Source: an uncultured Bacilli bacterium (GTDB taxonomy: Bacteria; Bacillota_I; Bacilli_A; RF39; UBA660). Taken from it: a DNA stretch of 57,370 nt. The position numbers and the translations under genes were made by a program. The DNA is taken from assembly GCA_947588925.1 (NCBI GenBank), contig CANQAT010000001.1, positions 1-57,370 of the forward strand, given 5' to 3'. The notes under the pieces were generated by a model. It had not been told where the DNA came from and made no database searches. It saw only the letters and a program-made list of their open reading frames with translations. Below are positions 16,900-33,602 of the stretch, in pieces. Each line of letters starts with the position of its first letter. The first letter of the stretch is position 1.

Positions 16900-17712
16900 A
16901 TGAATAATTTTGTTATAGGGTTAAAAAGATTTTTTACTAATAAAAATGTTGTAACAATAATTTTAGTTATTGTTATATTAGTTGTATTATATTATGGATA
17001 TAGTGGGAGTATAAAACAAAAAACAGATCCTGTCACTGTCCCAGTAGCTGCAAGAAAGATAGGACCACAGACAAAGCTAACATCAGACGATATCACTTAT
17101 GTTCAAGTAGCTAATAGTATGGTAAGTAAAAATGCACTTAGATATGTTGGAGATATTATTGATAAATATACTAATGTTAATGTTACTATTCCTGAGGGAA
17201 GTATGTTTTATAGTGAATGGTTAGATGTTCCTGAAAATATACCGGGCAACTGGATTGAACAAATAGACCGCGCATCAGGAGATCTTGGATATTACATGAG
17301 TGTTAGTATTGAAAGTACACTTGGTAAATCAGTACTTCCTAATTCATATATAGATATCTATATGAAAGCATTTGATGAAAATGGAACTATTATATTTGGT
17401 AAACTAATGAAAAACGTTAAAGTATTAGTAGTACACGATAGTGCAGGAAATAATATATTTGCTAATCCTGATGAAATTGGTGTTCCTGCAAAAATAGGAT
17501 TTGCTGTAAATAAAGATATGTATATTTTACTTAAAAAAGCAGAATTTTTAAATCTTGAATTAGTTTTAGCTCCTCGTGGATCTGAAGTACCAGCAGAAGA
17601 TTATGCGATAGTTACTAGTGCGACATTAAGAGATTATATTGACGCTCAGACTATAACTGTAGATGATGAGGTAATAACTGATACACCAAATACGGAACAA
17701 GAAGCAAGTTAG
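16900..17712 (+). CDS. CpaB/RcpC-like Flp pilus assembly protein (N-terminal TM plus SAF-like domain)
   Basis: TM anchor, then VPVAARKIGPQTKLTSDDITYVQV, which is typical of a SAF domain. Position is immediately upstream of the Tad ATPase. Confidence 0.6.
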   Translation: MNNFVIGLKRFFTNKNVVTIILVIVILVVLYYGYSGSIKQKTDPVTVPVAARKIGPQTKLTSDDITYVQVANSMVSKNALRYVGDIIDKYTNVNVTIPEGSMFYSEWLDVPENIPGNWIEQIDRASGDLGYYMSVSIESTLGKSVLPNSYIDIYMKAFDENGTIIFGKLMKNVKVLVVHDSAGNNIFANPDEIGVPAKIGFAVNKDMYILLKKAEFLNLELVLAPRGSEVPAEDYAIVTSATLRDYIDAQTITVDDEVITDTPNTEQEAS

Positions 17713-17721
17713 TGAGGAACC

Positions 17722-18843
17722 ATGACTGACAATATATTTGAAGGGATGGACTTTGGGCCTCTTAAAGAATATTTAGACAATGATGATATAACAGATATAT
17801 CTTATAGTAATAATGGACAAATTTGGTTAAGGACCTTATCAAAAGGTATATTTAGAATTGAAAACCCAGCTATAAACAATGCTTTTATAGAAAAACTCGC
17901 TTTTCAATGTTCAAATGTAATGGGTAAAAGCTTTAATGCTGCGCACCCTTTTCTCGATAGTGAAAGTTCTGAACTTCGTATGAATTTCGTACATGATTCA
18001 ATAGCAAGAAATGGAGTAGCATGCGTTATTCGTAAAACACCAGCTAAGATACGTCTTGAAAGAAACAAGATATTAAAAGAAAAATATATTACAGAAGATA
18101 TACTTGACTTTTTAATAACTTGTGTACACGGGCATTGCAATATAATCGTATGTGGAGAAACTGGATCAGGTAAAACTGAATTTGTTAAGTATTTGGCAGC
18201 TCATACATATGAAAATGAAAAGATAATAACTATTGAGGATACTTTGGAGTTGCACCTCGATAAAATATATCCAAATAGAGATATAGTTGCAATGAAAACA
18301 AATAATGTAGCTAGTTATACGGATGTTTTAGTAACTTGTATGAGACAAAATCCTAAATGGATTTTACTATCAGAGGTTCGTAGTGCGGAAGCAGTAATGG
18401 CCGTTAGAAACTCTATTTCATCAGGTCACAATATACTATCTACAATACATGCAGATAAAGCATCTTCTATACCTAATCGTATGTATAGCTTACTTGAGAC
18501 TAACCAAGATATAGACCAGTTTTTAAAATCAATTTATAGATATATACAATTAGGTGTATATATAAGAGGATATCAAGATAGGATTACAAAGCAGTTTGTA
18601 AGGGAAGTAGCGGAAGTAACAGAATTTTATGTAACAGATGATAATGAAGCAAAATATAATACTCTTTATAAAAAAACTCCAGATGGAAAAGTATATAGAA
18701 AGAACCCTAGTAAATATTTAATTGAATATTTAGAGTCTCAGGGTACTATGTTGCCATCAGGATTTATAAAGTCTGAATACGATAACAATTCAGAAGATGT
18801 AGAAGAAACAAAAACAAATTCAAGCGAAATAATTTTTGAATAG
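17722..18843 (+). CDS. CpaF/TadA-type (VirB11 superfamily) secretion ATPase
   Basis: Walker A GETGSGKT, Asp box ITIEDTLEL, Walker B WILLSEVR, His box GHNILSTIHA. Confidence 0.85.
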   Translation: MTDNIFEGMDFGPLKEYLDNDDITDISYSNNGQIWLRTLSKGIFRIENPAINNAFIEKLAFQCSNVMGKSFNAAHPFLDSESSELRMNFVHDSIARNGVACVIRKTPAKIRLERNKILKEKYITEDILDFLITCVHGHCNIIVCGETGSGKTEFVKYLAAHTYENEKIITIEDTLELHLDKIYPNRDIVAMKTNNVASYTDVLVTCMRQNPKWILLSEVRSAEAVMAVRNSISSGHNILSTIHADKASSIPNRMYSLLETNQDIDQFLKSIYRYIQLGVYIRGYQDRITKQFVREVAEVTEFYVTDDNEAKYNTLYKKTPDGKVYRKNPSKYLIEYLESQGTMLPSGFIKSEYDNNSEDVEETKTNSSEIIFE

Positions 18844-18855
18844 GAGAAGGGATTT

Positions 18856-19758
18856 ATGAATATAACTTTACTTTTTATAATTGTTTCTATATTGATTATA
18901 TTTATAATTATATATAGAAGTAGTATGGGTGAGCAAACTTATAAATTTATAAATAAACAATATCGCAGATTATATAGTAAAGTTTCTCCTTATACTTATA
19001 AAGAAATAAGAAAAAAAATTCGTGAATTAAAACAGGATTATACTGTTCAACAATATATTGGACAAGTACTAATATTTGCTCTTGGTGGAGGTATAATATC
19101 ATATCTATATTTTTACAATCTTGTAGTTGCTATAATATATGCAATAGCTGCTGTTGCAGTTGTTCCATATATAAACTACTTAAGATGTAAAAGATTATAT
19201 AGTGAATTTATATTTGAACAAATACAAGTATATACTACTAATACGATAATGGAATTTAATACAACTCAAAGCTTTGTAAAAGCACTAGAGGGTGTTTATT
19301 ATTCAGGAGTATTAGAAGACCCTGTTAAAGCTGATGTTAAAACTATGATAGACATGGCATATGAAAATGGAACCATAAATCAATCATTAGAGTTTATGCA
19401 AGAAAAATATGATTTTTATATGGTTAAGAATATGCACCAGTTGTTTTTACAAATTACTAATGAAGGTGCGAAAGATGTAAGCGATTCTTTAGAGAATATG
19501 TCTCTTGACATAGATATGTTAGTAGAGGCAGTTTATCGTGATAGAATAGATAGAGCAGCATTCTATAAAAAGTTTTTAATATTCGGTTTAGTACTATATT
19601 TAATGATAGGATTAGTTCAAATAATGTTAGGAGATACGTACCACAGTATGCTTGATCTTTGGTATGCGAGATTATTATTACATGTTATAGTCATAATAAA
19701 TTCATATTTCCTAATATCAGGAACAAAATATTATAATGAGAATGTGGGGGCTGAATAA
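18856..19758 (+). CDS. TadB-like platform protein (type II secretion system F family topology)
   Basis: 300 aa with TM, cytoplasmic helical domain and TM-pair architecture. Lies directly after the ATPase. Confidence 0.6.
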   Translation: MNITLLFIIVSILIIFIIIYRSSMGEQTYKFINKQYRRLYSKVSPYTYKEIRKKIRELKQDYTVQQYIGQVLIFALGGGIISYLYFYNLVVAIIYAIAAVAVVPYINYLRCKRLYSEFIFEQIQVYTTNTIMEFNTTQSFVKALEGVYYSGVLEDPVKADVKTMIDMAYENGTINQSLEFMQEKYDFYMVKNMHQLFLQITNEGAKDVSDSLENMSLDIDMLVEAVYRDRIDRAAFYKKFLIFGLVLYLMIGLVQIMLGDTYHSMLDLWYARLLLHVIVIINSYFLISGTKYYNENVGAE

Positions 19759-20549
19759 TGGAATTTGCAATTGTTGCTATAGCAGTTATTCTTATATTTG
19801 TCTGCAATAACATAATTAATCCAAAAAGTATACTTGGTCAGGTTAAACCATGGGTTAGAAGCTTGATGGAAAAAGATTATGAGTTCTTATTAAGAGTAAA
19901 GTATAAGGATAAAGATTTAGATATTAACGCACTATTTTCAAGAAGAATTAGGGATGGAATTTTAATAACAGCTTTTATAATATTTTTACTAGCTATAACA
20001 GGTTATTTAAACTATATGTTTGTAATATTTGCATTTGTTGCTGGTTTCTTGGTATTTAAAAGCAGTTATACAAAATTAAAAGGTTATTATAAAGCCAGAA
20101 TTCACTATATGGATTCTATGTTGCCATATTATTTGAAGAGTTTAGAGATTTTGGTTCAGCACTACACTGTTCCAGTAGCTATCTCAAGGAGTGTTGATAC
20201 AGCTCCTGAAATATTTAGACCGGGGCTTAGGAAGTTAGTTGCTAAAATTGATGAGGGAGATTCTAGTATTCAACCTTATTTGGATTTTGCAAATGAATAT
20301 CCAGTTAGAGATTCAATGAGAATGATGAGACTTTTGTATCGTTTAGGACTTGGTTCTAACGAGGATAAACACGATCAAATAATGATGTTTTCAAAAACGG
20401 TATCATCACTTCAAAATAAAGCTCGTGATATAAAATATAAAGAAAGACTTGAAGGCATGGAAAAAAGAACAATGCTTATGTTATTTGTAACAGGTGGAGG
20501 AGTTTTATTAGTATTATTCATGTCTATGAGTTTGATGATGGGTATATAG
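19758..20549 (+). CDS. TadC-like platform protein
   Basis: 263 aa with the same architecture as the preceding gene. ATG overlaps the upstream stop (TAATG). Confidence 0.6.
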   Translation: MEFAIVAIAVILIFVCNNIINPKSILGQVKPWVRSLMEKDYEFLLRVKYKDKDLDINALFSRRIRDGILITAFIIFLLAITGYLNYMFVIFAFVAGFLVFKSSYTKLKGYYKARIHYMDSMLPYYLKSLEILVQHYTVPVAISRSVDTAPEIFRPGLRKLVAKIDEGDSSIQPYLDFANEYPVRDSMRMMRLLYRLGLGSNEDKHDQIMMFSKTVSSLQNKARDIKYKERLEGMEKRTMLMLFVTGGGVLLVLFMSMSLMMGI

Positions 20550-20581
20550 TGTAAAAAAATGTAAATAATATTAATACAGTA

Positions 20582-20611
20582 TTGATTTTTATATATCTAT
20601 TAAGGTATAAT
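20582..20611 (+). promoter_or_regulatory. Promoter candidate for the Flp-sized pilin gene
   Basis: TTGATT, 18-nt spacer, TATAAT. A strong RBS GGTAGGTGAGG precedes ATG 20651. Confidence 0.5.
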
Positions 20612-20650
20612 ATAGTTAGTTATAGGTATTTAAAGGTAGGTGAGGTTTTA

Positions 20651-20872
20651 ATGAAAGAAGCAGCAGGAGAGGCAAATATGACTGTTATAACAATAGTTTT
20701 AATTGCAATAGTACTTGCAGTTGGAACTGTTATAGTTACTAATCTTATGAATAGTACTTCAAATAGTAGTGCTTGTACAGCATGTGGAGGTTATTGGAAA
20801 GGTGGAAAATGCCAAATTTCTGAAACTAACGCTGCTGAATTAGACTATTCTAGTTGTAAAGGTTCAAAATAA
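20651..20872 (+). CDS. Flp-sized (73 aa) pilin candidate with a cysteine-rich C-terminal tail
   Basis: MKEAAG leader, 25-aa hydrophobic helix, then a tail with five Cys (CTAC..C..C). Has its own promoter and terminator. Confidence 0.6.
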   Translation: MKEAAGEANMTVITIVLIAIVLAVGTVIVTNLMNSTSNSSACTACGGYWKGGKCQISETNAAELDYSSCKGSK

Positions 20873-20903
20873 ATGCTCGTTTTATAACAAGCATTTTTAT
20901 TTA
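20871..20903 (+). terminator. Intrinsic terminator after the pilin gene
   Basis: AAATGCTCGTT / AACAAGCATTT stem with one mismatch, followed by a T-run. Confidence 0.6.
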
Positions 20904-20977
20904 TAGCATTAAAAAATCAACTTTGAGCTATATATGACATTCTTTTGTAAACCCAGATTTATTTATTGATAATATCA

Positions 20978-21007
20978 TTGACAAAATAATTAAATAATTG
21001 GTATAAT
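20978..21007 (+). promoter_or_regulatory. Promoter candidate
   Basis: TTGACA, 18-nt spacer, TATAAT. Confidence 0.5.
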
Positions 21008-21033
21008 TGTTATGATAAAGGTAGGTAATTACA

Positions 21034-21489
21034 ATGAAAGAAAGTATAGGTTATTCAGTAACGCTCAATATAGTAATTATTTTTATACTTATTACGTTTA
21101 CTTTTCTTTCGGGTGTAATTATATATTTTAAGAGTAATAAGGTAAGCAATATTATAACTGAGACTATTGAAAAATATGAAGGATATAATACTTTTGCTCA
21201 AAGTGAAATATCACAAAAACTAGGTTCTATTGGATACATGAAAAAGCCACTAAAGAGTTGTCCTACTATTTCAGGATGTGAAAAACAGTATTCTGGTTCA
21301 GATGGATATTGCGTTTATGTATGTACTGAGGTTGAAAAAACTGCAGATACTTGTGATGTATATTACTATTACAGAATAAAAACTAGGATGATGATAAATA
21401 TTCCTATCATTAATGATTTGTTAGAAATTCCAATATATTCAAATACTAATAGAATGTATAATTTTGAAGATCAAAGTTTGTGCGGTTAG
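21034..21489 (+). CDS. Minor pilin / TadE-like candidate
   Basis: Leader MKESIG, then a hydrophobic helix and a Cys-containing globular part. Confidence 0.5.
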   Translation: MKESIGYSVTLNIVIIFILITFTFLSGVIIYFKSNKVSNIITETIEKYEGYNTFAQSEISQKLGSIGYMKKPLKSCPTISGCEKQYSGSDGYCVYVCTEVEKTADTCDVYYYYRIKTRMMINIPIINDLLEIPIYSNTNRMYNFEDQSLCG

Positions 21490-21501
21490 TGGAGTGATAC
21501 T

Positions 21502-22005
21502 ATGAGAGAGTCTATGGGAAATACTTTACTATTATATATAGTTATTATATTTTCTGGAATAATAATGTTATTCTTCGTTGGAATTTTATCTTATTCTAAA
21601 GCATATAAGGTAAAAAATAGAATTATAGAGATAATAGAAAAATATGGCAGTTATAGTAGCTGTTCAAATGGTGAAAAATGTGCAGTTTCTGAAATAAATG
21701 AAAGTTTAAAAGAGACGGGTTATAATGTAAGTTCAAAGGATTTGTGCAACAAAAGCTCTGTTCAAGACCATTTGAAAAAAGAGGTTGGTGTTGCTGGAAC
21801 GCCTGTTAGTCTAAATAATCCAACAAGTGGATATAATTATTGCGTTTTTGAAATTAATAACAAAACTTCATCAGTTACAAATCAAAATGCAGTATATTAT
21901 GTAGTTGTTACATTTGTACATTTCGATGTACCTATAATTGGAGATTTCATTAATATACCAGTGTATGGAGAAACTAAATATTTAGGTAAAAATTATAATT
22001 ATTAA
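21502..22005 (+). CDS. Minor pilin / TadE-like candidate
   Basis: Leader MRESMG, then a hydrophobic helix. Paralogous in layout to 21034..21489. Confidence 0.5.
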   Translation: MRESMGNTLLLYIVIIFSGIIMLFFVGILSYSKAYKVKNRIIEIIEKYGSYSSCSNGEKCAVSEINESLKETGYNVSSKDLCNKSSVQDHLKKEVGVAGTPVSLNNPTSGYNYCVFEINNKTSSVTNQNAVYYVVVTFVHFDVPIIGDFINIPVYGETKYLGKNYNY

Positions 22006-22020
22006 AAAGGGGAAATATAA

Positions 22021-23013
22021 ATGAATGTAATTGTATCGAATAAAAACCAAATGTTATTAGAAAACTTAGGAATAGATGTTATAAAAGAGATGAATGGTGA
22101 GTTTGATGTAGATGAGATAATTGCAACTTTTCAAAATTTCTTTTTTCAAAGAATGATACTAGATATAACTGCTATAAAAAATTATACAGATGTAACTAAT
22201 CTACAGAAATTATCTATTTCTTTAGATATGGATAAAGTAATCCTGCTATTAGATGGAACAGAATTAACTACAAATCCCACTTTCCTATCAAATTTAGTAT
22301 CTATGGGGATATATAATTTTGCTAAAAATATTGAGGGTATACAGTATTTATATAACACACCTAATAGTTATAGAGATGTTGCTCAGTTTCACAGAATAGA
22401 TTCTAATTTTGTAAATGCACAAATTTCAAATAAAAAACAACCTGTTGAACCTGCTCCTCAACCAGAATCAGAACCAGAATTCTATGGTACTAGAGTAATA
22501 GGTGTTAAAAACATTACTAAACAATCAGGTGCGAGTAGTCTTGTATACATGATGAAAAATGAACTTAGTAAAAATTATAGCGTAGTTGCGATAGAAGTAG
22601 ATAAGACAGATTTTAACTATTTTAGGGACAAAAGCATGATTTCAACCATTACTAGTGAAGTTGGAAGCGTTATAAACAAAAATAAGGATAAAAATGTAAT
22701 TCTAATCGATATTAATAATAGTATTGTAGCTGAAGGCTTTTGCCAGGAGGTTCTATATTTAATAGAGCCATCAATAATTAAATTACAAAAATTAATGGTT
22801 TTAAATGGAGCTGCTCTAAATAATTTAAAAAATAAAAAAGTAATATTAAATCAAAGTTTACTTAGTGAAAGTGAAGTTGCAAATTTTGAATATGAAGCTA
22901 GATTAAAAGTATTTTATAATTTAGCCCCTTTAAATGAAAGGGATAAAAAATTGCCTGAACTTAACAAGTTACTAGTTAAACTTGGATTTTCAAAGCAACA
23001 AAATGAAATTTGA
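22021..23013 (+). CDS. TadZ/CpaE-like protein: atypical receiver-like N domain, Pro-rich linker, and a ParA/MinD-like domain with a degenerate P-loop
   Basis: Linker QPVEPAPQPESEPE. GVKNITKQSGASS sits where KGGxGKT/S would be expected. Confidence 0.5.
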   Translation: MNVIVSNKNQMLLENLGIDVIKEMNGEFDVDEIIATFQNFFFQRMILDITAIKNYTDVTNLQKLSISLDMDKVILLLDGTELTTNPTFLSNLVSMGIYNFAKNIEGIQYLYNTPNSYRDVAQFHRIDSNFVNAQISNKKQPVEPAPQPESEPEFYGTRVIGVKNITKQSGASSLVYMMKNELSKNYSVVAIEVDKTDFNYFRDKSMISTITSEVGSVINKNKDKNVILIDINNSIVAEGFCQEVLYLIEPSIIKLQKLMVLNGAALNNLKNKKVILNQSLLSESEVANFEYEARLKVFYNLAPLNERDKKLPELNKLLVKLGFSKQQNEI

Positions 23014-23031: not shown

Positions 23032-23060
23032 TTGACAATATTTGGTTTGGTAAGTATAAT
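23032..23060 (+). promoter_or_regulatory. Consensus sigma-A promoter
   Basis: TTGACA (23032..23037), 17-nt spacer, TATAAT (23055..23060). Confidence 0.6.
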
Positions 23061-23103: not shown

Positions 23104-23949
23104 ATGAAAAAAGCAGTATTACCACTGCTCGTCTTGCTTGTTGCGCTAACTTTTGGTATGAATGTTATCTCTGCAGATGAATGTACTGATTGTCAAAACA
23201 GTGGTAAGCCATGTGGATTATGTGGACGTTCATGTAAACTATATGATGATGGCGTGTGCAGAGTAAGCGATTATGATCAAGAATTATTTGACGCTGCAGA
23301 GTGTGCGAAAAATGCTAAAAGCTATAGTGAATGCAGTAAATGTACGGGTTATAGGTGGAATTCTAGTAGTTCTTCATGTGTCGTAGCAAGTTATGATGTT
23401 AATATTAATAGCGACTTAGTTTGCGAGTATGAAGGAAGGTACAATAATGTAGAAGTAACGTACACTATAGGCTTTAACAAAAATGATTCTGTGGTTGTCT
23501 ATAGAGATGGCTCTTTATTATCAAAGAAAGTTAGTCTGTCATATTTAGATAATATTGATACTTGTCCTAAAGATGAAAATATTTATATAAAAGAAAACAG
23601 TAATAGTATATCAATAAGAAGTAATGTAAGTTGTGGAAATATAGATTCAATACCAGCAAAATTTCCAGAGATTGTAAGTCTTATTGTTAGAATAATTCAA
23701 GTAGCTGTTCCAATAATACTTATATTAATGGGCATGATAGATTTATTTAAAGGTATAACAGCGCAAAAAGAAGATGAATTGAAAAAAGGACAACAGATGT
23801 TTATAAAGCGTTTAGTAGTTGGAGTTATAATATTCTTCGCGGTAATAATTGTTAAACTTTTAGTAAGCATTGTTGCAGACGCTGATACGTCAAATATAAC
23901 AAGTTGTATCGATTGCTTTTTAAGCGGTGTCGATAATTGTAGGAGGTAA
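23104..23949 (+). CDS. Paralog 1: secreted Cys-rich ectodomain fused to a C-terminal VirB2/TrbC-like two-helix module
   Basis: Signal peptide ending VISA. The mature N terminus DECTDCQNSGKPCGLCGRSCKLYDDGVCR is Cys-dense. C-terminal module VPIILILMGMIDLFKGITAQKEDELKKGQQMFIKRLVVGVIIFF, then CIDCFL. Confidence 0.65.
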   Translation: MKKAVLPLLVLLVALTFGMNVISADECTDCQNSGKPCGLCGRSCKLYDDGVCRVSDYDQELFDAAECAKNAKSYSECSKCTGYRWNSSSSSCVVASYDVNINSDLVCEYEGRYNNVEVTYTIGFNKNDSVVVYRDGSLLSKKVSLSYLDNIDTCPKDENIYIKENSNSISIRSNVSCGNIDSIPAKFPEIVSLIVRIIQVAVPIILILMGMIDLFKGITAQKEDELKKGQQMFIKRLVVGVIIFFAVIIVKLLVSIVADADTSNITSCIDCFLSGVDNCRR

Positions 23950-23952
23950 TTT

Positions 23953-24435
23953 ATGAAGAAAAAAATGTTATTAATTGTATTTACTATTTGTGCGTTTTGT
24001 TTTATGAGTATGCCTGTATTTGCTAAAAATATAGCTTCTTGTGATAGTGCGATTTCAAGTACTGTATTAATCGATGAGAAAATTCCAAATACTGTTAGTA
24101 CTATAGTAAATATAATAAAAGTTGTTGTTCCTATCTTACTAGTAATATTTGGTATGATAGATTTATTCAAAGGTATAACAGCTCAAAAAGAAGACGAATT
24201 GAAAAAGGGGCAGCAAATGTTTATAAAGCGTTTAGTTGCTGGAATAATTGTGTTCTTCGTATTTTCAATAGTTCAAATGTTAACTAGTTTAGTTGCTGGT
24301 GATGACAATACAGATATATTTACGTGTGTTAACTGTTTTATAAATAAAAAATGTACTTATAGAGCAGACAGTGAGGGTAATTGTGATGAAGGATTTACAC
24401 TATCAAATGGAGTATGTGTAAAAAATAATAATTAA
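23953..24435 (+). CDS. Paralog 2: short-ectodomain VirB2/TrbC-like two-helix protein
   Basis: Signal peptide, then the same module with a 28-aa stretch identical to paralog 1, then CVNCFI. Confidence 0.65.
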   Translation: MKKKMLLIVFTICAFCFMSMPVFAKNIASCDSAISSTVLIDEKIPNTVSTIVNIIKVVVPILLVIFGMIDLFKGITAQKEDELKKGQQMFIKRLVAGIIVFFVFSIVQMLTSLVAGDDNTDIFTCVNCFINKKCTYRADSEGNCDEGFTLSNGVCVKNNN

Positions 24436-24446
24436 GGGAGGTTTAT

Positions 24447-25562
24447 ATGGTTGAGGCCTTAAAAAAATTAGATAGAAAGTTTTTAATTATTGTCGGTTGT
24501 TTAATTTGTATACCTATTTTAATAATAATATTTCTTGCTATTGTACAGTCTTGCGGAAGTAAGACGTTATCCTATGAAAAGTATGAGGATAAAATGATTA
24601 GCGCAGCAGAGAAGTATTTTAAGAAAAAAAATATTATTCCAACAGAAGAATCAGAATTAGTTACTGTTAGTTTAGATGATTTAGTCTCTAATGGCTATAT
24701 TAAATCACCTGAAAAATTAGTTAAAGATAAATCTTGTACTGGAAATGTTAGTGTAAGAAGAAATGGTTCATCTATAGAGGAAAATGAAGGTGGATATTTA
24801 AATTATACTGTTCAGTTAAGCTGTGATAGTTATTCAACTAAAACTTTATCAAGTGTACTTAAAAATAGCCTTGTAAGTGAAGGTGAAGGTTTATATCAAG
24901 TTGGAGATATGTTCATATTTAAGGGTGATGATCCTAAAAATGTCGTAAGTATTTCAGATGAAATCTATAGAATTTTAAGTATAGATGAAAATAACATTTT
25001 AAAACTTTTAAAAGTTGAACCTGAAACTATTAATCATATGTGGGATAATAAATACAATACTGAAGTAAATAGTAGTGTTGGAAAAAATATATATGAAGAT
25101 AGTGTTATTTCAAAACGCTTAGAAGCAATATATAATGATTCAAAAAAATTTAAAGATTTAAAAGATAAAATTATATTAAAGGATATATGTATTGAAGCTA
25201 GAGATATAAATAATTATGATTTCATTACAAGTGAAGCTAGTTGCTCTAAAATATTAGAGAATCAACCTGTCTCACTAATAAACGTTTCTGATTTTGCTAA
25301 TGCAAGTTTAGACGCTGAGTGCTTAAATATTAATTCTAAATCTTGTAGAAATTACAATTATTTAAAAAATTATTCTCTATCTACATGGACAGTTAATGCG
25401 GTTTCTAATAACTCATATCAAGTTTATTATTTAGAGAACAATCTTGTAAGCTATATGGACGCTAATAATTATAACGAATATAATATAGTAATATATATCG
25501 ATGGTAATGAAAGAGAATTTACTGGTACAGGTAAACAGTCAGATCCATTTATTATTAAATAG
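24447..25562 (+). CDS. N-terminally anchored extracytoplasmic protein, function unknown
   Basis: Single TM helix (residues ~12-33) followed by a 335-aa hydrophilic domain with several Cys. Confidence 0.45.
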   Translation: MVEALKKLDRKFLIIVGCLICIPILIIIFLAIVQSCGSKTLSYEKYEDKMISAAEKYFKKKNIIPTEESELVTVSLDDLVSNGYIKSPEKLVKDKSCTGNVSVRRNGSSIEENEGGYLNYTVQLSCDSYSTKTLSSVLKNSLVSEGEGLYQVGDMFIFKGDDPKNVVSISDEIYRILSIDENNILKLLKVEPETINHMWDNKYNTEVNSSVGKNIYEDSVISKRLEAIYNDSKKFKDLKDKIILKDICIEARDINNYDFITSEASCSKILENQPVSLINVSDFANASLDAECLNINSKSCRNYNYLKNYSLSTWTVNAVSNNSYQVYYLENNLVSYMDANNYNEYNIVIYIDGNEREFTGTGKQSDPFIIK

Positions 25563-25573
25563 ATGAATTTGTA

Positions 25574-25602
25574 TTGACTTTTAATAAAAAATAAAATATA
25601 AT
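25574..25602 (+). promoter_or_regulatory. Near-consensus sigma-A promoter
   Basis: TTGACT (25574..25579), 17-nt spacer, TATAAT (25597..25602). Confidence 0.6.
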
Positions 25603-25623
25603 TAATGTAACGGAGGTATTTAT

Positions 25624-26025
25624 ATGAATTTTTTAGCTGCTAAAATGGGTGGACTTTATAATTGTGGAAATCTTGGATTTGATATTCCTGGTACATTTCC
25701 ATATATAGTACATCTTATTGTATTATTGATTAAAATTGTCGTTCCAATAATATTAATAATTTTTGGAATGCTTGATTTAGGAAAGGCTGTAGTTGCTTCT
25801 AAAGAAGATGAAATAAAGAAAGGTCAACAAACTTTTATAAAAAGACTTGTTGCCGCTATTGTGGTATTCTTCATAGTTCAAATAGTACAAATAATTGTTT
25901 CATTTGTTGCTTCTAGCTCAGGAGATGGTTCAACTATTTCTCAATGCTTTAACTGTTTTGTAAATGGAACTGTTGATAATGGAGAAAGAGGATGTAGCGT
26001 AAGCCCAAATAGTCCAATTAATTAA
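25624..26025 (+). CDS. Paralog 3: minimal VirB2/TrbC-like two-helix protein
   Basis: NCGNLGFDIP motif, then VPIILIIFGMLDLGKAVVASKEDEIKKGQQTFIKRLVAAIVVFF and CFNCFV. No large ectodomain. Confidence 0.65.
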   Translation: MNFLAAKMGGLYNCGNLGFDIPGTFPYIVHLIVLLIKIVVPIILIIFGMLDLGKAVVASKEDEIKKGQQTFIKRLVAAIVVFFIVQIVQIIVSFVASSSGDGSTISQCFNCFVNGTVDNGERGCSVSPNSPIN

Positions 26026-26134: not shown

Positions 26135-28273
26135 ATGTTTGTTTTATCTATAAATACTTGGTTTCAAACATTAATGAGACAATTTTTCTTTAACATTGAT
26201 AAAATTGTATTTAATTTTATATCAACGTTATATGAATTTTTAACAACGATAGCAAGGACATCAATACTATCTCAGTCAGATATTCAACTAATTACTAATA
26301 GAATATATCAATTATTGGCTGTTTTTATGGTGTTTAAAGTTACTTTTTCTTTGATAATGTACGTAGTTAATCCTGATGACTTTTCTGATAAATCAAAAGG
26401 TGTTGGGAAGCTTGGACTTAATATAATGATTTCTTTAGGTGTTTTGATATTAACGCCATATATATTTAGTTATGCATATCGTTTTCAAACTATTATATTA
26501 GAAGATAATTCCTTAGCAACGTTGATAATGGGAGATACAGATGAGGATAAGGACGCTTTTAACACTGCAGGAGATAAGATGGCTTATATGACGTTAGCAC
26601 CGTTTTTTACACCTAATGTATCGATAGATAATTTGTACGAATGCGTGGAATTAACGGTTAAAACAACTACAGCTACAGGTACAGTTGTGAAATTTAATCC
26701 AGCCTGTTCTGGATTAAATGATAATTATGAACCAACTGACGATAGCGATTCGCTACAAAGTCTAGTTAACGATGAAAGATTTACAATGGAAGATTTAAAG
26801 ACTTATGTTGCGGGTGTGGAAAATAGCAATTTAGGTTTAATGTTTAGACAGGACATGGCAACCGCAATGGATGAAAATAAAAAAAATTATATCATAGATT
26901 ATAAGTACTTATTTAGTACAGCTATAGGGATTATTGTAATATTAATATTAATAAGTTTTTGCTTAGATGTAGCTGTTCGTAGTATTAAACTTGCGTTTTT
27001 ACAGCTTGTAGCTCCAATACCAATTATATCTTATGTAGATCCAAAAAGTGGTAAGGATGGTTTATTTAAAAAATGGTATCAGATGTGCTTTAAAACTTAC
27101 TTAAGTTTATTCATAAGACTTTTAGCTTTGTATTTTGCGGTTTTCATAATAAGCAAAATCGATAGAATGGTTGATATTGTAGACGGTTCTTATGTAACTA
27201 ATTTGTTTGTAAAAATATTTATTATAATTGGAGCTTTAATGTTTGCTAAACAATTACCAAAGATACTTGAAGGACTTGGAATTAAGCTAGATGGAGGCTT
27301 CCAATTAAATCCACTTAAGAAAATTGAAAATGAGGCTTTAGGTGGAAAACAGATAGCTAAGGCTGCGAGAGTTCCACTAAAATATGCAGGAAGAGGAGCT
27401 AAGGGATTAGTTGCCGGTGGATTGGCGGGTGCTGCTGCATTTGGAACTAATTTAATAGCAAGAAGGGGTAATGTATTTAGCGCAACTGCGGGTGCATTAA
27501 GTGCAACTGCTAGAGGTTTAAAAGGTGCCGTAAAAGGTGAAAAATTCGGTAAAAACTTTTCAAATTCGTATGGCGGCGCTATGAAGGCGAGAACTAATAG
27601 AGCCGATAGAAAGGATTTAGGAATAAATGCTTTTGATGTGGCAAGTGAAAATATTAAGAAGCGTTTATATATTCCTAACGAAGCGCAAAAAAATAAATTA
27701 ACTTTAGATCATTTAAATGAATATACATCTGCAGGTAAAACTGCAAAGACTAGGGCTGAAGGGGAAGTTGACAAGAAAGCAAGTATGATTGAAATTGATG
27801 GACAAAATTTAGGTGCTTTGAGAGATTCATATGAAATATTAAAAAATACACAAATAAAAAGAAGAACTGGAGAATCGGATGCTGCTTATCAAGCTAGAGT
27901 TGAACAACATGCACGTCTGGCTGCGGAAGCAAATGCAAAATATTTTAAAGCAAGAAAAAAAGCTGTAAATGCTTATGTTAATAGTGCTGATAATTTATCA
28001 CGATCTTCAATTTCTATTGGTGGTTCAACTATAACTGGATTTGATTCAGCATTCTCAGGGGATGCAGCAAGAGATGAAATTGTTGCATCAAACGTTGAAA
28101 AAATGAAACAGTTAAATTCAGATTACAGTATGCAGCAGCCAGTTAATTCTGAAGATATTGGTGCTACAATTCAAAATGCTGAAAATGAAACAGCTAGAAT
28201 TCAAGGAAGTAGAGAATACAGACAAGCAGAACTTATTTCTCAACAAGCACAAAAAGAAAAAAGTTCAAAATAA
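26135..28273 (+). CDS. VirB6/TrbL-like polytopic channel protein with a long basic Gly/Ala-rich and coiled-coil C-terminal tail
   Basis: Multiple TM helices. LDVAVRSIKLAFLQLVAPIPIISYV and WYQMCFKTYLSLFIRLLALYF resemble the TrbL/VirB6 core. The ~320-aa hydrophilic tail starts near residue 395. Confidence 0.6.
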   Translation: MFVLSINTWFQTLMRQFFFNIDKIVFNFISTLYEFLTTIARTSILSQSDIQLITNRIYQLLAVFMVFKVTFSLIMYVVNPDDFSDKSKGVGKLGLNIMISLGVLILTPYIFSYAYRFQTIILEDNSLATLIMGDTDEDKDAFNTAGDKMAYMTLAPFFTPNVSIDNLYECVELTVKTTTATGTVVKFNPACSGLNDNYEPTDDSDSLQSLVNDERFTMEDLKTYVAGVENSNLGLMFRQDMATAMDENKKNYIIDYKYLFSTAIGIIVILILISFCLDVAVRSIKLAFLQLVAPIPIISYVDPKSGKDGLFKKWYQMCFKTYLSLFIRLLALYFAVFIISKIDRMVDIVDGSYVTNLFVKIFIIIGALMFAKQLPKILEGLGIKLDGGFQLNPLKKIENEALGGKQIAKAARVPLKYAGRGAKGLVAGGLAGAAAFGTNLIARRGNVFSATAGALSATARGLKGAVKGEKFGKNFSNSYGGAMKARTNRADRKDLGINAFDVASENIKKRLYIPNEAQKNKLTLDHLNEYTSAGKTAKTRAEGEVDKKASMIEIDGQNLGALRDSYEILKNTQIKRRTGESDAAYQARVEQHARLAAEANAKYFKARKKAVNAYVNSADNLSRSSISIGGSTITGFDSAFSGDAARDEIVASNVEKMKQLNSDYSMQQPVNSEDIGATIQNAENETARIQGSREYRQAELISQQAQKEKSSK

Positions 28274-28290: not shown

Positions 28291-28611
28291 ATGAACAATT
28301 CATATTTAATACCTGCAAATTCAAAGAAAAGTTTGCTTAAATTTGGAGCGTTTAATACGGTAGATTTAATAATATTTATATGTGGAATAGGAATATCATT
28401 CTTGCTGATGATGTTCCTTCCAATGAATAATTTCTGGGTTGCGGTAACTGCAATTATGCCGGGAATGATATGTGGTTTTCTGGTTATTCCGGTTCCTAAT
28501 TATCACAATGTTCGTACCGTAATAATGAATGCTTGGAATTTTTATACAACAAGGCAAAAATATATATGGAAGGGTTGGTGCTTTAACGATGGCGAAACAG
28601 ACAAAAAGTAG
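28291..28611 (+). CDS. PrgI/VirB3-like small two-TM protein
   Basis: 106 aa with two TM helices, immediately upstream of and overlapping VirB4. This arrangement is typical of Gram-positive T4SS loci. Confidence 0.6.
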   Translation: MNNSYLIPANSKKSLLKFGAFNTVDLIIFICGIGISFLLMMFLPMNNFWVAVTAIMPGMICGFLVIPVPNYHNVRTVIMNAWNFYTTRQKYIWKGWCFNDGETDKK

Positions 28612-30912: not shown

Positions 30913-30929
30913 AATAGGAGGTGTTATTA

Positions 30930-32930
30930 GTGAATCAAACAGAAAATATAGAAAGTCCAGCAAACAAATTTGGTACTAATTCTAGTAATTCAGCCGATAA
31001 GTTAAGGAAGATTGCTGAAACTTCTGGAATAAATAATTATAATAGTTTGCACGATAATAATAAGTTAGAAGAAAAATTAAAAGGATTAAAAAATCAAAAA
31101 TATCCTAATGTTCCTCATTATGATTCAACTAATAACACACCCTCTATAAATAATTCACAAAGCAATAACAAAATTAGGAAATCAACTACTTTTAATCCAA
31201 ACCCAAGCGGGAAAAATAATAGTAATATGGCTCAAAAGCTTGCCTCTAAGGGTTTAAACAAAGCGGGAGTTCCAAAACCTATTGCGAGTGAAGTGGCAAA
31301 GAATGGGCTTTCCAATGCTAAATTTGGGAATCCAATGTTAAATGCTTTTAGCTCATTATTAGGAAATAAAAAAGATGAACTTGAGGAACAATCACTTAAT
31401 GTAGGCGTTACAGCTGAATTAAAAAAGCATTTAAAACTTGCAGTTATTATTCTTACAGTAGCGTTTCCAACAATATTTGTTTGTCTTTTTACAGTAGCTT
31501 CTCAAGTTTATTATAAATCATATAATTTAGGATTATCTGACGCACTTCTTAGCGATGAGGACGCTTCTGATAAAATAAATAAGAAGATTGATGATGGAGA
31601 TATTGATAGCGAGGTTACTGATGAAGATGCAAGTGATGTTGAAGCATATAATTACTCTAGTAATTCAATTTTAGCTTTCAATTATGATAAAAGTCTTTTT
31701 AGGTATAATAAGTTAGCTTCTTCTAATTTAGTTTTAGCTAAGACTTCAACATATTTAGATAGAAAATATAATGAAGCTAGCTTAGATGATTTAGAAGATT
31801 TTTTCCCTGATATTGGAAACTATGCAGATGAATATGGGGAAAATTTAGTTTATGATTTCTTCTTTAAAATGTATAATATATATAACTTTTATAAGAGTGA
31901 ATATAATGGCGTTGAACTAGATTTGCCACTATTAATGTCAACACTTCTTGTACAATCTGAAGATATGGGAGAGGTATTTAGATCAAATTTAAGTGAAGAA
32001 GATACAAAAGTAAGTGGTTGGAAAATGCCTGTTCAAGATTATTCTTATGATAAAGATTGGAGTAATCAAAAGTTAAGTCCAACAGACAGTACACATGATA
32101 TGGAAATTTTGGCTCAGCACATGATTTCAAAAAAAGTTAATGAGTATTGTGTAAATTCATATGGTGAGGTTACAAAGTCTAATATACTAAAAGATAGCGC
32201 AATTGGGACTCAAAGTTTAACATGTGAAAATGGTGAGACTTACGAGGTATCTGATCCATATTATGAACGTGATTTAGACAAATATGATGAATTTTTAAAG
32301 GAATTTATAGAGAAAAAATATTTTATAGATGAAAGTGTTGATGAACCCCAAAAACCAGATGATGGCGATGGTGGGGATGAAAAACCTGATGAAAATCCTG
32401 GAGTAGTTCCACCCACACCAAGTACTGGTGTATGGAGAAACTGGAAACAGTGTGGACAATCTTGGAGTAAAGATATTGTTCCAAAAAGTAATTCAACTAT
32501 GTGTAGTATAGGTTGTCTTATTACATCTGTTACTATTCAAATAGCTAGGAGTGGGACTGCTACAGTAGTTACTCCAATAGATCCAGGCGTTGCTTTAAAA
32601 AAATATAGTTTTGCTAGTGGTGGGAACTTTGTGTGGTCAAGTACTACAAAGTTAGCTCCTAATTTTCAATATAGGACATCTATTAATTTGTCTGGAATGA
32701 CAAGAGAAGGTATAGCAAAAAAACTATCTAGTTATGATCCATCAAAATATTATATAGTATTAGCTGTTTCAAAATTAGATAGGAATAAGGTACACCACTA
32801 TGTAGCTTTTGATTACGTAGATTTATCTGATAATGAAATATATATGATAGATCCTGGATTAAATAATAATCCAAAGTTATATTCAGTTTATAAAGTTTAT
32901 AAAGCGTATATCTATATGAAAAAGGATTAG
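30930..32930 (+). CDS. Membrane protein with an Asn/Ser-rich cytoplasmic N terminus, one TM helix, an extracellular region, an acidic Pro/Gly linker and a C-terminal papain-fold (C39/CHAP-like) cysteine peptidase candidate
   Basis: GTG 30930 lies 8 nt after AGGAGG. Candidate catalytic Cys is in NSTMCSIGCLITS, His in VHHYVAFDY and Asp in YMIDPG. Confidence 0.5.
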   Translation: MNQTENIESPANKFGTNSSNSADKLRKIAETSGINNYNSLHDNNKLEEKLKGLKNQKYPNVPHYDSTNNTPSINNSQSNNKIRKSTTFNPNPSGKNNSNMAQKLASKGLNKAGVPKPIASEVAKNGLSNAKFGNPMLNAFSSLLGNKKDELEEQSLNVGVTAELKKHLKLAVIILTVAFPTIFVCLFTVASQVYYKSYNLGLSDALLSDEDASDKINKKIDDGDIDSEVTDEDASDVEAYNYSSNSILAFNYDKSLFRYNKLASSNLVLAKTSTYLDRKYNEASLDDLEDFFPDIGNYADEYGENLVYDFFFKMYNIYNFYKSEYNGVELDLPLLMSTLLVQSEDMGEVFRSNLSEEDTKVSGWKMPVQDYSYDKDWSNQKLSPTDSTHDMEILAQHMISKKVNEYCVNSYGEVTKSNILKDSAIGTQSLTCENGETYEVSDPYYERDLDKYDEFLKEFIEKKYFIDESVDEPQKPDDGDGGDEKPDENPGVVPPTPSTGVWRNWKQCGQSWSKDIVPKSNSTMCSIGCLITSVTIQIARSGTATVVTPIDPGVALKKYSFASGGNFVWSSTTKLAPNFQYRTSINLSGMTREGIAKKLSSYDPSKYYIVLAVSKLDRNKVHHYVAFDYVDLSDNEIYMIDPGLNNNPKLYSVYKVYKAYIYMKKD

Positions 32931-32937
32931 TGATAAA

Positions 32938-33585
32938 ATGAAGAAATTAGTATTGTTTACTTTTATAGTTCTACTTTTATCTGGATGTACTGCTAATTAT
33001 GAAATTAACTTAAAGGATGATAAAGTAGAGGAAAAACTAACGATTATAGAGACTAATAAAAGCATATTTGATAAAGAACTTGATACAGGGTGGACAATAA
33101 GACAAAGTTTTGAATCAATGCTTGAAGGCGATGAATTTGGTGAGGAGAATTATAATGTTAAATCACTTATTACAGATGATCAACTTGGAATTGAATATAC
33201 ATCCAAATCAGCTCTTTCAATACTAAATTCATCTATTGTAAATCAGTGTTATAGAAACCCAAGTGTATCTATTAGTAATAATATTATATCAATTGATACT
33301 GGTTCTAATTTTGAGTGTTACGACTTTTATGAAAACTTAGAAAGTGTTAGAGTTGTGTTTAAAACAAACCATAAGGTTATTTCAACAAATAGTGATTCTA
33401 AAGAAGGTAATTCTTATATTTGGAATATAACAAAAGATGGAAATAAAACTATTCAAATAACTTATGATGACTCTATAACAAAAAAAAGTATAATACCTTA
33501 TATAATAATAGGTATAGTAGCGGTTGTTATAATAATTTCAGGATGTTTTGTACTTAAAAAAGTAAAAAATAAAAATAGTTTTTAA
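32938..33585 (+). CDS. Lipoprotein with an additional C-terminal TM anchor
   Basis: Lipobox LLLSGC at residues 12-17. C-terminal IPYIIIGIVAVVIIISGCFVL. Confidence 0.6.
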   Translation: MKKLVLFTFIVLLLSGCTANYEINLKDDKVEEKLTIIETNKSIFDKELDTGWTIRQSFESMLEGDEFGEENYNVKSLITDDQLGIEYTSKSALSILNSSIVNQCYRNPSVSISNNIISIDTGSNFECYDFYENLESVRVVFKTNHKVISTNSDSKEGNSYIWNITKDGNKTIQITYDDSITKKSIIPYIIIGIVAVVIIISGCFVLKKVKNKNSF

Positions 33586-33602
33586 ATTTTGGAGGTGAGA
33601 TA

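Follow-up and report, generated by a model that had tools for sequence, protein, structure and literature searches.

In a 57,370-nt window of DNA from an uncultured Bacilli bacterium, three adjacent open reading frames (ORFs) on the forward strand share a two-helix module joined to outer parts of very different size, which raises the question of what kind of membrane protein they encode. An earlier note on this DNA placed the three ORFs correctly and gave the right lengths for the second and third, whereas the first, listed there at 282 aa, encodes 281 aa, the figure of 282 being its codons with the stop. The answer we favor, which we hold to be fairly probable, is that they form a pilin-like array of a type IV secretion system (T4SS), a machine for the transfer of DNA or protein, VirB2-class by topology and gene position and distantly related to PF18895 (T4SS_pilin), within a chromosomal T4SS locus, where a bare major subunit would be accompanied by variants that display heads.

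A two-helix module with exchangeable heads

Paralogs 1, 2 and 3 share a module of ~95 aa, with 45 invariant columns in the alignment and the motifs described in the earlier note: helix 1 reads VPI(I/L)L..GM.DL.K(G/A), the loop A.KEDE.KKGQQ.FIKRLV, and helix 2 is followed by a CxxC motif (CIDCFL, CVNCFI or CFNCFV). When a profile of the three modules was run against all window ORFs, each of these paralogs was recovered at E 1e-50 to 5e-53, a likeness far beyond chance, together with the two further copies that had been noted outside the locus (paralog 5, E 5e-30; paralog 4, E 4e-17), and this search shows the modules of all five window copies to be homologous to one another. Modules 1 and 2 are 72% identical in DNA over 265 nt, so their likeness does not stem from a recent duplication or gene conversion. 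AlphaFold2 (AF2) predicts the module monomer as a hairpin (helices 24–57 and 61–98, pLDDT 80) in which the N- and C-tails make a small shared cap. The loop contains six K/R residues and each tail one, placing the loop on the cytoplasmic side by the positive-inside rule, and this loop is the most conserved stretch of the family in every copy, including those with heads. Four cysteines (C14, C108, C111 and C124) reach 90% conservation or more in the family, and the number of extracytoplasmic cysteines is even in all five copies; in paralog 4 a single cysteine lies on either side of the hairpin.

The outer parts differ in kind as well as size. Paralog 1 has a signal-peptide-like N-terminus of ~24 aa and a head that spans residues ~25–180 and holds 13 of the protein’s 16 cysteines, where the earlier note gave ~200 aa. 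The ~45-aa head ascribed to paralog 2 is mostly a signal peptide of 23–24 aa, with ~20 mature residues ahead of the module, and the Cys-rich part is instead the C-terminal tail; paralog 3 is almost headless, as had been noted. Across the family, a signal-peptide-like start is seen in 79 of the 85 members whose module is preceded by more than 40 residues, compared with 0 of 25 bare members, and in 7 of 138 members the extension is C-terminal instead, consistent with both termini lying outside. Many array members carry Cys-rich heads of 70–470 aa, none of which matches any Pfam family or PDB fold. These heads are modular and fast-changing: module A is common to paralogs 1 and 4, where it opens the head of the latter, and to relatives P0126/P0127, module B is common to paralog 1 and relatives P0021 and P0122–P0125, module A is missing from the nearest species, whose VirB4 is 96% identical, and 69 heads fall into 27 clusters. 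The idea of one scaffold with interchangeable heads thus holds across the family.

Table. Features of the locus and of the two distant paralogs, in window coordinates
Feature	Position	Strand	Length (aa)	Remarks
Tad-like pilus gene set	16900..23013	+		Immediately before the array; also includes a CpaB-like protein, two polytopic membrane proteins and a 330-aa protein without matches
ATPase of the CpaF/FlaI/VirB11 clade	17722-18843	+		Tad-like set
Flp-like protein	20651-20872	+		Tad-like set
Two TadE-like proteins	21034-21489, 21502-22005	+		Tad-like set
Sigma-70-like promoter	23032..23060	+		12/12 (perfect), before paralog 1; consensus match only
Paralog 1	23104..23949	+	281 (282 codons with stop)	N to C: signal peptide, Cys-rich module A (~25-95), beta-rich module B (~105-173), ‘SCGN’ linker, two-helix pilin-like module, CxxC tail
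Paralog 2	23953..24435	+	160	Signal peptide, ~20-aa N-tail, pilin-like module, ~35-aa Cys-rich C-terminal tail
Conserved protein within the array	24447..25562	+	371	One N-terminal TM helix and ~330-aa outer domain (predicted)
Sigma-70-like promoter	25574..25602	+		11/12, before paralog 3; consensus match only
Paralog 3	25624..26025	+	133	Bare pilin-like module without signal peptide, directly 5′ of VirB6
VirB6/TrbL-like channel protein	26135..28273	+	712	~300-aa hydrophilic C-terminal extension; PF19597 (TrbL_4) E 2.3e-8, over cut-off
PrgI/VirB3-like small membrane protein	28291..28611	+		PF12666 E 0.0037, sub-threshold; syntenic in 60 loci
TraC-like N-terminal protein	28589-29128	+		Followed by VirB4; stretch 28589..30912 matches PF26593, PF12846, PF19044
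VirB4 ATPase	29125-30912	+		See TraC-like protein
669-aa membrane protein (no family match), lipoprotein, M23 peptidase/glucosaminidase	30921..35033	+		The last a cell-wall hydrolase (VirB1-like role)
VirD4 coupling protein	36060..38087	+		PF02534 E 3e-57
Paralog 4	40171..41244	+	357	Between DUF2238 and RNase R
Paralog 5	49154..50167	+	337	Directly 3′ of PduL; head unrelated

The chromosomal T4SS locus and its distribution

The array lies directly 5′ of genes for VirB6, PrgI/VirB3, VirB4, cell-wall hydrolases and VirD4, its three module copies and one intervening gene standing 3.1 kb upstream of VirB4, with 110 nt between the end of paralog 3 and VirB6. The best NCBIfam matches of VirB6 are the Mollicutes ICE VirB6-like models NF045848 and NF045889 (E 2e-13 and 3e-12, sub-threshold). 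Strong Shine-Dalgarno sequences precede the ATG of each of paralogs 1–3 by 6–9 nt, and paralogs 1 and 3 are also preceded by sigma-70-like sites, a class of site that is no commoner overall than in shuffled sequence. The 24-kb locus is chromosomal, with ScpAB at one end and RmuC, RNase R and SmpB at the other; the genes for paralogs 4 and 5 stand outside it. No relaxase or integrase domain was recognizable among the scanned window ORFs, which also include the sporulation genes YabP, YabQ and GerQ. The host is a low-GC, spore-forming gut bacterium of the class Bacilli.

Family members form 9,417 clusters at 50% identity, and a tblastn search of 72,556 plasmids gave no match to the module. The loci that we compared come from MAGs nearly all labeled Bacilli, ‘Tenericutes’, Erysipelotrichaceae or Mycoplasmatota incertae sedis, with a few stray labels. 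Synteny of the 24-kb locus is kept in 50–69 of 77 loci of gut Bacilli MAGs, a set that includes L001/L002 from the window’s own strain; the Tad-like set and the array are syntenic in 49–69 of the 77, or 49–68 outside that strain, the order VirB6-PrgI-VirB4 in ~60, and VirD4 falls inside the fetched flank in 11. Elsewhere a locus has 2–6 module copies on a constant plan, in which 2–5 variable copies are followed by a ~370-aa gene, a bare copy of 121–134 aa at the position of paralog 3 (in most loci) and VirB6. The 371-aa protein itself has same-position orthologs in 48 loci and no match in Pfam, NCBIfam or PDB sequences. The chromosomal site is conserved across species, and VirB4 identity across loci is 78–96%; between species, the predicted outer proteins (pilin-like proteins, VirB6 and the 371-aa protein) are 37–55% identical and the ATPases 80–83%.

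Family assignment and competing readings

The earlier note had called the module VirB2-like and proposed comparing it with the T4SS_pilin and TrbC/VirB2 families. PF18895 (71 model positions, gathering cut-off 26.6 bits) was passed by paralog 4, at 27.8 bits in full length and 31.8 bits for the module alone, whereas paralogs 5 (21.8 bits) and 2 (20.3 bits, its top match) scored below the cut-off, paralog 3 reached 10.3 bits and paralog 1 gave no match; the matches of paralogs 4, 5 and 2 cover nearly the whole model, at positions 3–71. Among relatives, 54 of 105 short ones (E<=0.01; best 1.6e-7) and 20 of 66 long ones (E<=0.001; best 4.6e-7) matched PF18895, which for those 54 is the sole convincing family match, and of 8 close relatives of module 4, 4 have this annotation precomputed. 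Many members are also matched at E ~1e-3 to 1e-4 by ‘noise’ families of hydrophobic proteins (7tm_1 and TctB among them), and against this background only the top PF18895 scores are clearly distinct. The helix-charged loop-helix architecture of PF18895, ~70 residues long, is present in the module by hydropathy and AF2, and the array has the T4SS neighbors VirB4 and VirB6 expected of that family. On sequence evidence, the module would thus be a distant PF18895 member, an assignment that reaches paralogs 1–3 by transitive homology through paralog 4, because the five window modules are mutually homologous. Canonical TrbC/VirB2 identity found no support: no window module matched PF04956 at E<=10, nor did any of 171 relatives at E<=0.01, and hhalign against a 3-sequence alignment of Agrobacterium-type VirB2 gave a probability of 0.1–0.3%. 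The comparison with PrgF gave 0.6%, a profile search of PDB sequences with the module found no match, and Foldseek searches of the PDB with two models returned nothing at E<0.1 and no conjugative pilin, a bare helical hairpin carrying little signal. The VirB2-like label is supported by the predicted hairpin, the distant PF18895 relationship and the gene position.

The head-bearing copies could instead be membrane-anchored surface proteins that never polymerize, with the hairpin as an anchor or VirB6 dock and the heads as adhesins, receptors or exclusion factors. The heads, at 160–470 aa, are indeed large beside the module, there is no structural or profile likeness to solved pili, and paralogs 4 and 5 lie away from the T4SS, at conserved sites beside housekeeping genes. 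Field et al. (PMC10868615) report a lack of sortases in related uncultured orders, which would call for another mode of anchoring. However, a single TM helix would do for that purpose, the conservation of the loop in every copy is unexpected for a mere anchor, and dozens of species retain head-bearing copies in a tandem arrangement with VirB6 and the bare copy; we regard the anchor explanation as rather unlikely.

We think it improbable that this is a lineage-specific two-TM family unrelated to pilins (a Tad-like component or substrate, a holin- or bacteriocin-like protein or an immunity factor) whose PF18895 matches reflect hydrophobic composition. Four of the five window copies fail to reach the Pfam cut-off, other TM families match at noise level, the Tad-like genes show the same degree of synteny with the array, and the NCBIfam pilin-like model of Mbov_0395 (NF045849) is matched by 2 of 105 relatives (best E 0.0046) and by no window copy. 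Nevertheless, no other family comes near PF18895 in score or in number of matches, and its matches are in register over the full model; the place right before VirB6/VirB3/VirB4 is that of PrgF and of the Mollicutes ICE pilin-like genes; and no lysis or toxin genes adjoin the family. Tad pilins are built with a single N-terminal helix, and genes of that one-helix type are present separately at 20651–22005. A role as T4SS substrates, with the C-terminal module as recognition or translocation signal and the N-terminal domains as effectors, would fit the fusion of variable domains to a conserved C-terminal part, the presence of VirD4 and the failure to find a relaxase in the window. We consider it very improbable, since the heads have Sec-type signal peptides and numerous paired cysteines, which point to Sec export and oxidation outside rather than VirD4 delivery from the cytoplasm, and two hydrophobic TM helices are unlike known T4SS signals.

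If the array does encode pilin-like subunits, each protein would insert in the membrane as a hairpin with both termini outside and the K-E-D-E-x-K-K-G-Q loop in the cytoplasm. Paralog 3 is most likely the major subunit, given that it has no signal peptide, has its own promoter-like site and lies directly before VirB6; it would be pulled from the membrane and polymerized on VirB6 so that the loop lines the lumen. In the signal-peptide copies (paralogs 1, 2, 4 and 5), the same module may enter or cap the filament or dock on the machine, and the disulfide-rich outer domains would thereby stick outward as exchangeable adhesin or recognition heads. The two outer tails are probably stapled to each other through the cysteine conserved just before helix 1 and those after helix 2. 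A pilus may not readily accommodate a 160-aa globular head on each of its subunits. As a tentative and rather doubtful extension, we suggest that gut Bacilli of the RF39/RFN20/ML615J-28 type (uncultured, small-genome and spore-forming) possess a vertically inherited core machine in which a Tad pilus and a T4SS are fused, and that its VirB2-class pilus, made of a bare subunit and fast-evolving adhesin-pilin fusions, might serve contact-dependent exchange with cells rather than plasmid conjugation, the heads choosing the partner. On this extended reading, no ‘modular pilins’ of the T4SS filament class would have been known before such fusions, and the role of the machine would parallel that of the T4SS with its pilin array that is essential in epibiotic Patescibacteria.

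Comparison with known systems

The closest precedents are the T4SS pilin arrays of Patescibacteria and PrgF of pCF10. The view that such an arrangement lies outside the textbook description of Gram-positive T4SSs has been partly overtaken by PrgF (bioRxiv 10.64898/2025.12.18.695078) and by the Patescibacteria VirB2 arrays (PMC12102498, PMC10633639); the combination of the two-helix module with very different Cys-rich outer domains, which recurs in many uncultured gut Bacilli, nevertheless appears undescribed for this pilin class. Reports on Ca. Southlakia epibionticum and TM7x (PMC10633639, PMC12102498, PMC12857230) describe VirB2-like pilin arrays in monoderm hosts with small genomes and a type IV-filament system alongside, in chromosomal T4SSs related to Gram-positive systems, where 2–11 divergent pilin genes detected with PF18895 either follow one another directly or are interrupted by a non-pilin gene and a relaxase is usually absent. 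The present system agrees with these in its monoderm host, from a lineage that likewise has small genomes, in its chromosomal T4SS of Gram-positive affinity, in the Tad-like filament genes alongside, in the use of PF18895 to detect the pilin-like genes, and in having three divergent copies, with one other gene among them, near virB4, with no relaxase found in the window, but its host belongs to the class Bacilli, VirD4 is present, the Tad-like set is physically fused to the locus, and the Cys-rich heads of 70–470 aa with signal peptides are not reported in the excerpts of those papers.

PrgF is a VirB2-like protein essential for pCF10 conjugation, encoded two genes upstream of PrgH (bioRxiv 10.64898/2025.12.18.695078). 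Paralog 3 resembles it (PrgF_B2), and the small two-TM VirB2-like proteins of conjugative plasmids in Gram-positive bacteria, in having two TM helices, no signal peptide and a charged loop of ~20 residues that is the most constrained part, and in a gene that adjoins virB6 upstream of prgI/virB4. By the features of the PrgF_B2 type (50–150 aa, two TM helices, charged loop, no signal peptide, near virB6), paralog 3 belongs, paralog 2 (160 aa, signal peptide) is borderline and paralog 1 (281 aa) falls outside. PrgF differs in being a 75-aa protein (paralog 3 has 133 aa) encoded in single copy on a plasmid with a relaxase, as opposed to 3–6 chromosomal copies, several with large outer domains. With Gram-negative TrbC/VirB2/TraA, the module shares the helix-loop-helix hairpin with termini outside and loop inside (here predicted), a leader peptide in most copies and a gene before virB3/virB4, but profile, profile-profile and fold searches gave no similarity, the loop of ~20 residues is much longer, a disulfide staple is proposed here in place of cyclization or acetylation machinery, and the heads are a new feature.

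Modular pilins of another class are the PilB and PilC type IV pilins of Streptococcus sanguinis, with grafted adhesin modules, and the R64 thin pilus has PilV shufflon tip adhesins. The concept is alike, a conserved polymerization module with exchangeable adhesive modules that set target specificity, but those proteins belong to the type IV filament superfamily, with one N-terminal helix, a prepilin peptidase and C-terminal grafts, whereas the scaffold here would be a T4SS VirB2-class hairpin with mostly N-terminal heads. R64 is mentioned in one Patescibacteria report (PMC12102498). Finally, in the Mollicutes ICE pair of Mbov_0395 (pilin-like, NF045849) and Mbov_0396/MMCAP2_0566 (VirB6-like), unlike the present locus, which is no ICE in that neither an integrase nor a relaxase turned up in the window and its chromosomal site is fixed across species, the genes travel in an ICE; like it, the pair has the pilin-like gene before VirB6, the hosts are phylogenetically related, and it is these VirB6-like models that the VirB6 here matches best.

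The two-helix module and its relation to T4SS_pilin

The three adjacent ORFs of the pilin array are real genes at the coordinates given by an earlier note, each with an ATG preceded 6–9 nt upstream by a GGAGGT-type Shine-Dalgarno sequence, and the common module that this note had described in them was borne out: the alignment of their last ~95 residues has 45 invariant columns and contains every motif quoted there. An HMM built from the three modules scored them at E 1e-50 to 5e-53 and recovered both of the further copies that had been announced, paralog 5 (337 aa, E 5e-30) and paralog 4 (357 aa, E 4e-17), with no other window ORF below E 0.29. Modules 1 and 2 are only 72% identical in nucleotide sequence, so we regard them as old paralogs and rejected recent duplication or gene conversion. 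Each module has two TM helices by hydropathy, and the intervening loop carries six K/R vs one in each tail, which by the positive-inside rule would make the loop cytoplasmic and put both termini on the outside. An AF2 model built with 105 relatives (pLDDT 79.9) has helices at 24–57 and 61–98 and a small cap in which an N-tail strand pairs with a C-tail strand. Conservation in the family is highest in the loop and at the end of helix 1 (G48, M49, D51, K54, A58, K60, E61–I64, K65, K66, G67, Q68, F71, K73, R74). Conservation reaches at least 90% for four cysteines, one ahead of helix 1 and three past helix 2, the number of extracytoplasmic cysteines is even in all five window copies, and paralog 4 has exactly one on either side of the hairpin; from these positions and counts we propose that a disulfide may join both outer tails of the hairpin.

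The proposed likeness to TrbC/VirB2 and T4SS_pilin held in part: T4SS_pilin (PF18895) was the top Pfam match for paralogs 2, 4 and 5, but canonical TrbC/VirB2 (PF04956) was absent from the window modules even at E ≤ 10. Paralog 4 exceeds the PF18895 gathering score of 26.6 bits (27.8 bits at full length, 31.8 bits for the module only), paralogs 5, 2 and 3 fall under it (21.8, 20.3 and 10.3 bits), and paralog 1 has no match to this family. In the wider family PF18895 was matched by 54 of the 105 short relatives (best E 1.6e-7) and by 20 of the 66 long ones (best E 4.6e-7), and of eight close relatives of module 4, four have it as a precomputed annotation. Relatives also match unrelated Pfam TM families, at E around 1e-3 to 1e-4, which leaves only the strongest PF18895 scores as decisive; the three array ORFs are members by transitive homology. 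At the level of sequence, we take homology of the hairpin module to T4SS_pilin as established. When the family was aligned by hhalign with three VirB2/TrbC sequences (Agrobacterium, Acetobacter and Acidiphilium) or with PrgF, the VirB2-like protein of pCF10, probabilities were <1% and 0.6%, both weak negatives from shallow alignments. Foldseek gave no significant PDB match for two AF2 models (hairpin and head), the family profile found only chance matches among PDB sequences, and NCBIfam gave essentially nothing for the module. Weak NCBIfam matches of pilin modules to VirB6-like models were also seen (13 of 105 to NF045848), and bare short relatives of module 4 (95–143 aa) that carry PF18895 occur elsewhere.

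Outer domains ahead of the module

Among 138 cluster representatives, the extension ahead of the module exceeds 100 residues in 60 and measures 41–100 residues in 25, and seven have a C-terminal extension of >100 residues instead. A signal-peptide-like start occurs in 79 of the 85 members with an N-extension >40 residues and in none of the 25 bare members, and we consider it established that a predicted signal peptide is present only where the ectodomain needs export. The Cys-rich head attributed to paralog 1 is present, with 13 cysteines and a signal-peptide-like start, but spans ~160 residues rather than ~200; the ~45-aa head attributed to paralog 2 proved to be mostly signal peptide, with a Cys-rich tail at the C-terminus instead; paralog 3, correctly described as almost headless, also has no signal peptide. 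Cysteine makes up 5% of the heads.

The head of paralog 1 consists of two modules, A (Cys-rich, residues ~25–95), which is 45% identical to the start of the paralog 4 head and forms the entire head of the relatives P0126 and P0127, and B, a beta domain with a C.Y...CPK signature common to the relatives P0021 and P0122–P0125. AF2 gave paralog 1 a pLDDT of 75, with a folded beta domain at 105–173 (pLDDT 80–90). Module A is missing from the ortholog of the nearest species, whose VirB4 is nevertheless 96% identical, and 69 heads from related loci fall into 27 clusters, 20 of them singletons; the only two same-species contigs are 99.99–100% identical. That the outer domains are fast-evolving and shuffled is, as judged by sequence comparison, established. 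Scanned against Pfam, the heads of 66 relatives gave no domain match, and precomputed dockerin matches (PF00404) in the heads of two remote relatives, P0171 and P0174, hint that some heads could be Ca-binding or cohesin-binding modules.

The locus and its distribution

The T4SS locus is 24 kb in size and lies within one complete MAG contig of 57,370 bp. The Tad-like set looks complete and comprises a CpaB-like protein, an ATPase of the CpaF/FlaI/VirB11 clade, two polytopic membrane proteins without a Pfam match, an Flp-like protein with four cysteines, two TadE-like proteins and a 330-aa protein with neither PDB sequence relatives nor family matches; no prepilin peptidase was seen. The ATPase may work for the Tad filament, for the T4SS as a VirB11, or for both. 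After VirB6 come PrgI/VirB3-like, TraC-like, VirB4, a 669-aa membrane protein, a lipoprotein, an M23/glucosaminidase hydrolase, two small TM proteins and VirD4. ScpA/ScpB border the locus on one side and rhodanese, RmuC, DUF2238, paralog 4, RNase R, CapA and SmpB on the other, with YabP, YabQ, DivIC, GerQ, PduL, paralog 5, ClpP and GAPDH further out. The window ORFs scanned showed neither a relaxase nor an integrase domain. At its C-terminus the VirB6-like protein is extended by ~300 hydrophilic residues rich in Ala, Lys and Gly (‘extended VirB6’). Inside the array, the 371-aa protein crosses the membrane once and has a large outer domain; it is kept in 48 loci, is without family match or PDB sequence relative, and might be a tip component or one like VirB5 or VirB8. 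The two genes that open the locus in ~25 loci encode proteins without a family match.

Features of the window and identity of their products across related loci
Feature	Coordinates	Median identity to window protein	Remarks
Abi_2 protein adjoining tRNA-Leu(CAA), DUF772 transposase fragment, NgoFVII-like restriction enzyme and C-5 cytosine methylase	11150–12097, 12570–12656, 50286–53385		outside T4SS locus
Two opening genes	14102–16395		537-aa polytopic, large outer domain; 223-aa secreted, Cys-rich, C-terminal TM helix
DUF5411	16423–16884		follows opening genes
Tad-like set	16900–23013		directly 5′ of pilin array
Tad-like ATPase		80%	
Flp-like protein		55%	
TadE-like proteins		37% and 39%	
330-aa protein	22021		
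Sigma-70 consensus site	20978–21007		precedes TadE-like genes
Sigma-70 consensus site	23032–23060		precedes paralog 1
Sigma-70 consensus site	25574–25602		precedes paralog 3
Paralog 1	23104–23949 (+)		
Paralog 2	23953–24435 (+)		
371-aa protein	24447–25562	42%	
Paralog 3	25624–26025 (+)		bare
VirB6/TrbL_4	26135–28273	41%	first T4SS gene 3′ of paralog 3
TraC-like		76%	
VirB4	29125–30912	83%	range 78–96%
Paralog 4	40171–41244		
RNase R	41297–43432		66–82% identical in same loci
YabP, YabQ, GerQ	46523–48524 and 45672–46523 (with gap after SmpB)		
Paralog 5	49154–50167		

A profile search of 1.84 billion cluster representatives returned 9,417 clusters (50% identity) at E ≤ 1e-3 and 4,803 at E ≤ 1e-10, and a word-indexed search returned >5,157 clusters at 90% identity, none with a functional name, the few named ones being ‘hypothetical protein’. 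Relatives are encoded by 333 stretches from GTDB species representatives, nearly all from gut MAGs labelled Bacilli, ‘Tenericutes’, Erysipelotrichaceae or Mycoplasmatota incertae sedis. Eight loci (L007, L034, L037, L045, L055, L061, L074, L077) are labelled Bacteroidaceae, Muribaculaceae or Roseburia yet have a low-GC Bacilli-type locus; such stray labels are likely to come from binning or labelling error in public records. In 79 loci we counted 260 module-bearing ORFs, usually ordered as 2–5 tandem copies with variable N-termini, the 371-aa ortholog, a bare copy of 121–134 aa and VirB6, often with an extra copy of 370–450 aa between the last two. Synteny extends from the Tad-like genes across the array to VirB4 in 49–69 of 77 loci. 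VirB4 is conserved above the housekeeping RNase R, an indication that the machine is under strong selection in this lineage. Far from being strays, paralogs 4 and 5 are stable genes at conserved chromosomal sites, the former flanked by DUF2238 and RNase R in three loci and the latter placed after PduL in four, and one locus keeps the run VirB4...VirD4–rhodanese–RmuC–DUF2238–paralog–RNase R (sites seen in the related loci L060, L063, L066, L069 and L078). The module had no tblastn match in 72,556 plasmids and a megablast of 10 kb against plasmids gave none either, so a known conjugative plasmid or ICE was rejected; VirB4 is at most 29% identical to Gram-positive plasmid VirB4. The T4SS/pilin locus is thus chromosomal and inherited vertically, and is no mobile element.

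Proposed assembly, precedents and flanking genes

The position of the array genes resembles that of known VirB2-like genes. Assembly of PrgF on VirB6 has been proposed, and both pilin termini lie on the outer face in published pilus structures (bioRxiv 10.64898/2025.12.18.695078). We propose that the bare copy ahead of VirB6 would be the major subunit, assembled on VirB6, and that head-bearing copies would co-assemble with or cap the filament, on which they may present adhesin or recognition domains. The main rival reading keeps the head-bearing copies in the membrane as anchored surface proteins. Under the filament model that we prefer, variant and major subunits may be controlled separately, which would fit the promoter-like sites ahead of paralogs 1 and 3; these are perfect or near-perfect sigma-70 matches in intergenic gaps, consensus matches only, and the total count of promoter-like sites is not above shuffled expectation.

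Monoderm T4SSs were described as pilus-less until 2023–2025, when Patescibacteria arrays and PrgF altered that view, and a 2025 review still treats Patescibacteria as the sole exception among monoderms. These are the closest precedents for the window array: according to PMC12102498, PMC10633639 and PMC12857230, Patescibacteria T4SSs are chromosomal and relaxase-poor, with 2–11 divergent VirB2-like pilins in arrays that are essential in Southlakia. The TANB77 ‘conserved pilin’ cluster (PMC11680825) is different, being Tad-only, from Clostridia and described with no mention of a T4SS. In our literature searches we met no published account of VirB2-class pilins fused to large ectodomains, nor of the Bacilli system of the window, and we rate as new here the host group of this T4SS pilin array, its modular heads and the fused Tad-like set. 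Since PMC12102498 left open co-option of Patescibacterial pilins from outside the Gram-positive T4SS class, a very large unannotated T4SS_pilin-related family in gut Bacilli bears on their origin. The pilin module serves as a carrier for interchangeable outer domains, rich in putative disulfides, which suggests how target choice and attachment could work for a Gram-positive T4SS in lineages reported to be without sortase-anchored adhesins; the orders RF39, RFN20 and ML615J-28 are described as thin-walled and partly sporulating, with sortases lacking in RFN20 and ML615J-28 (PMC10868615). The MAG of the window probably belongs to one of these three orders. A chromosomal location, no recognisable relaxase and a VirB4 more conserved than RNase R point to a lifestyle function of the machine in these abundant uncultured gut bacteria, and because the heads are predicted to be exposed, are variable and occur on common gut organisms, they are candidates for host or phage recognition.

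In the flanks, neither ARAGORN nor Rfam found a tmRNA in the ~400 nt that follow SmpB. This MAG is of the small-genome type and has the sporulation genes YabP, YabQ and GerQ; the defence and mobile elements of the window lie outside the T4SS locus.
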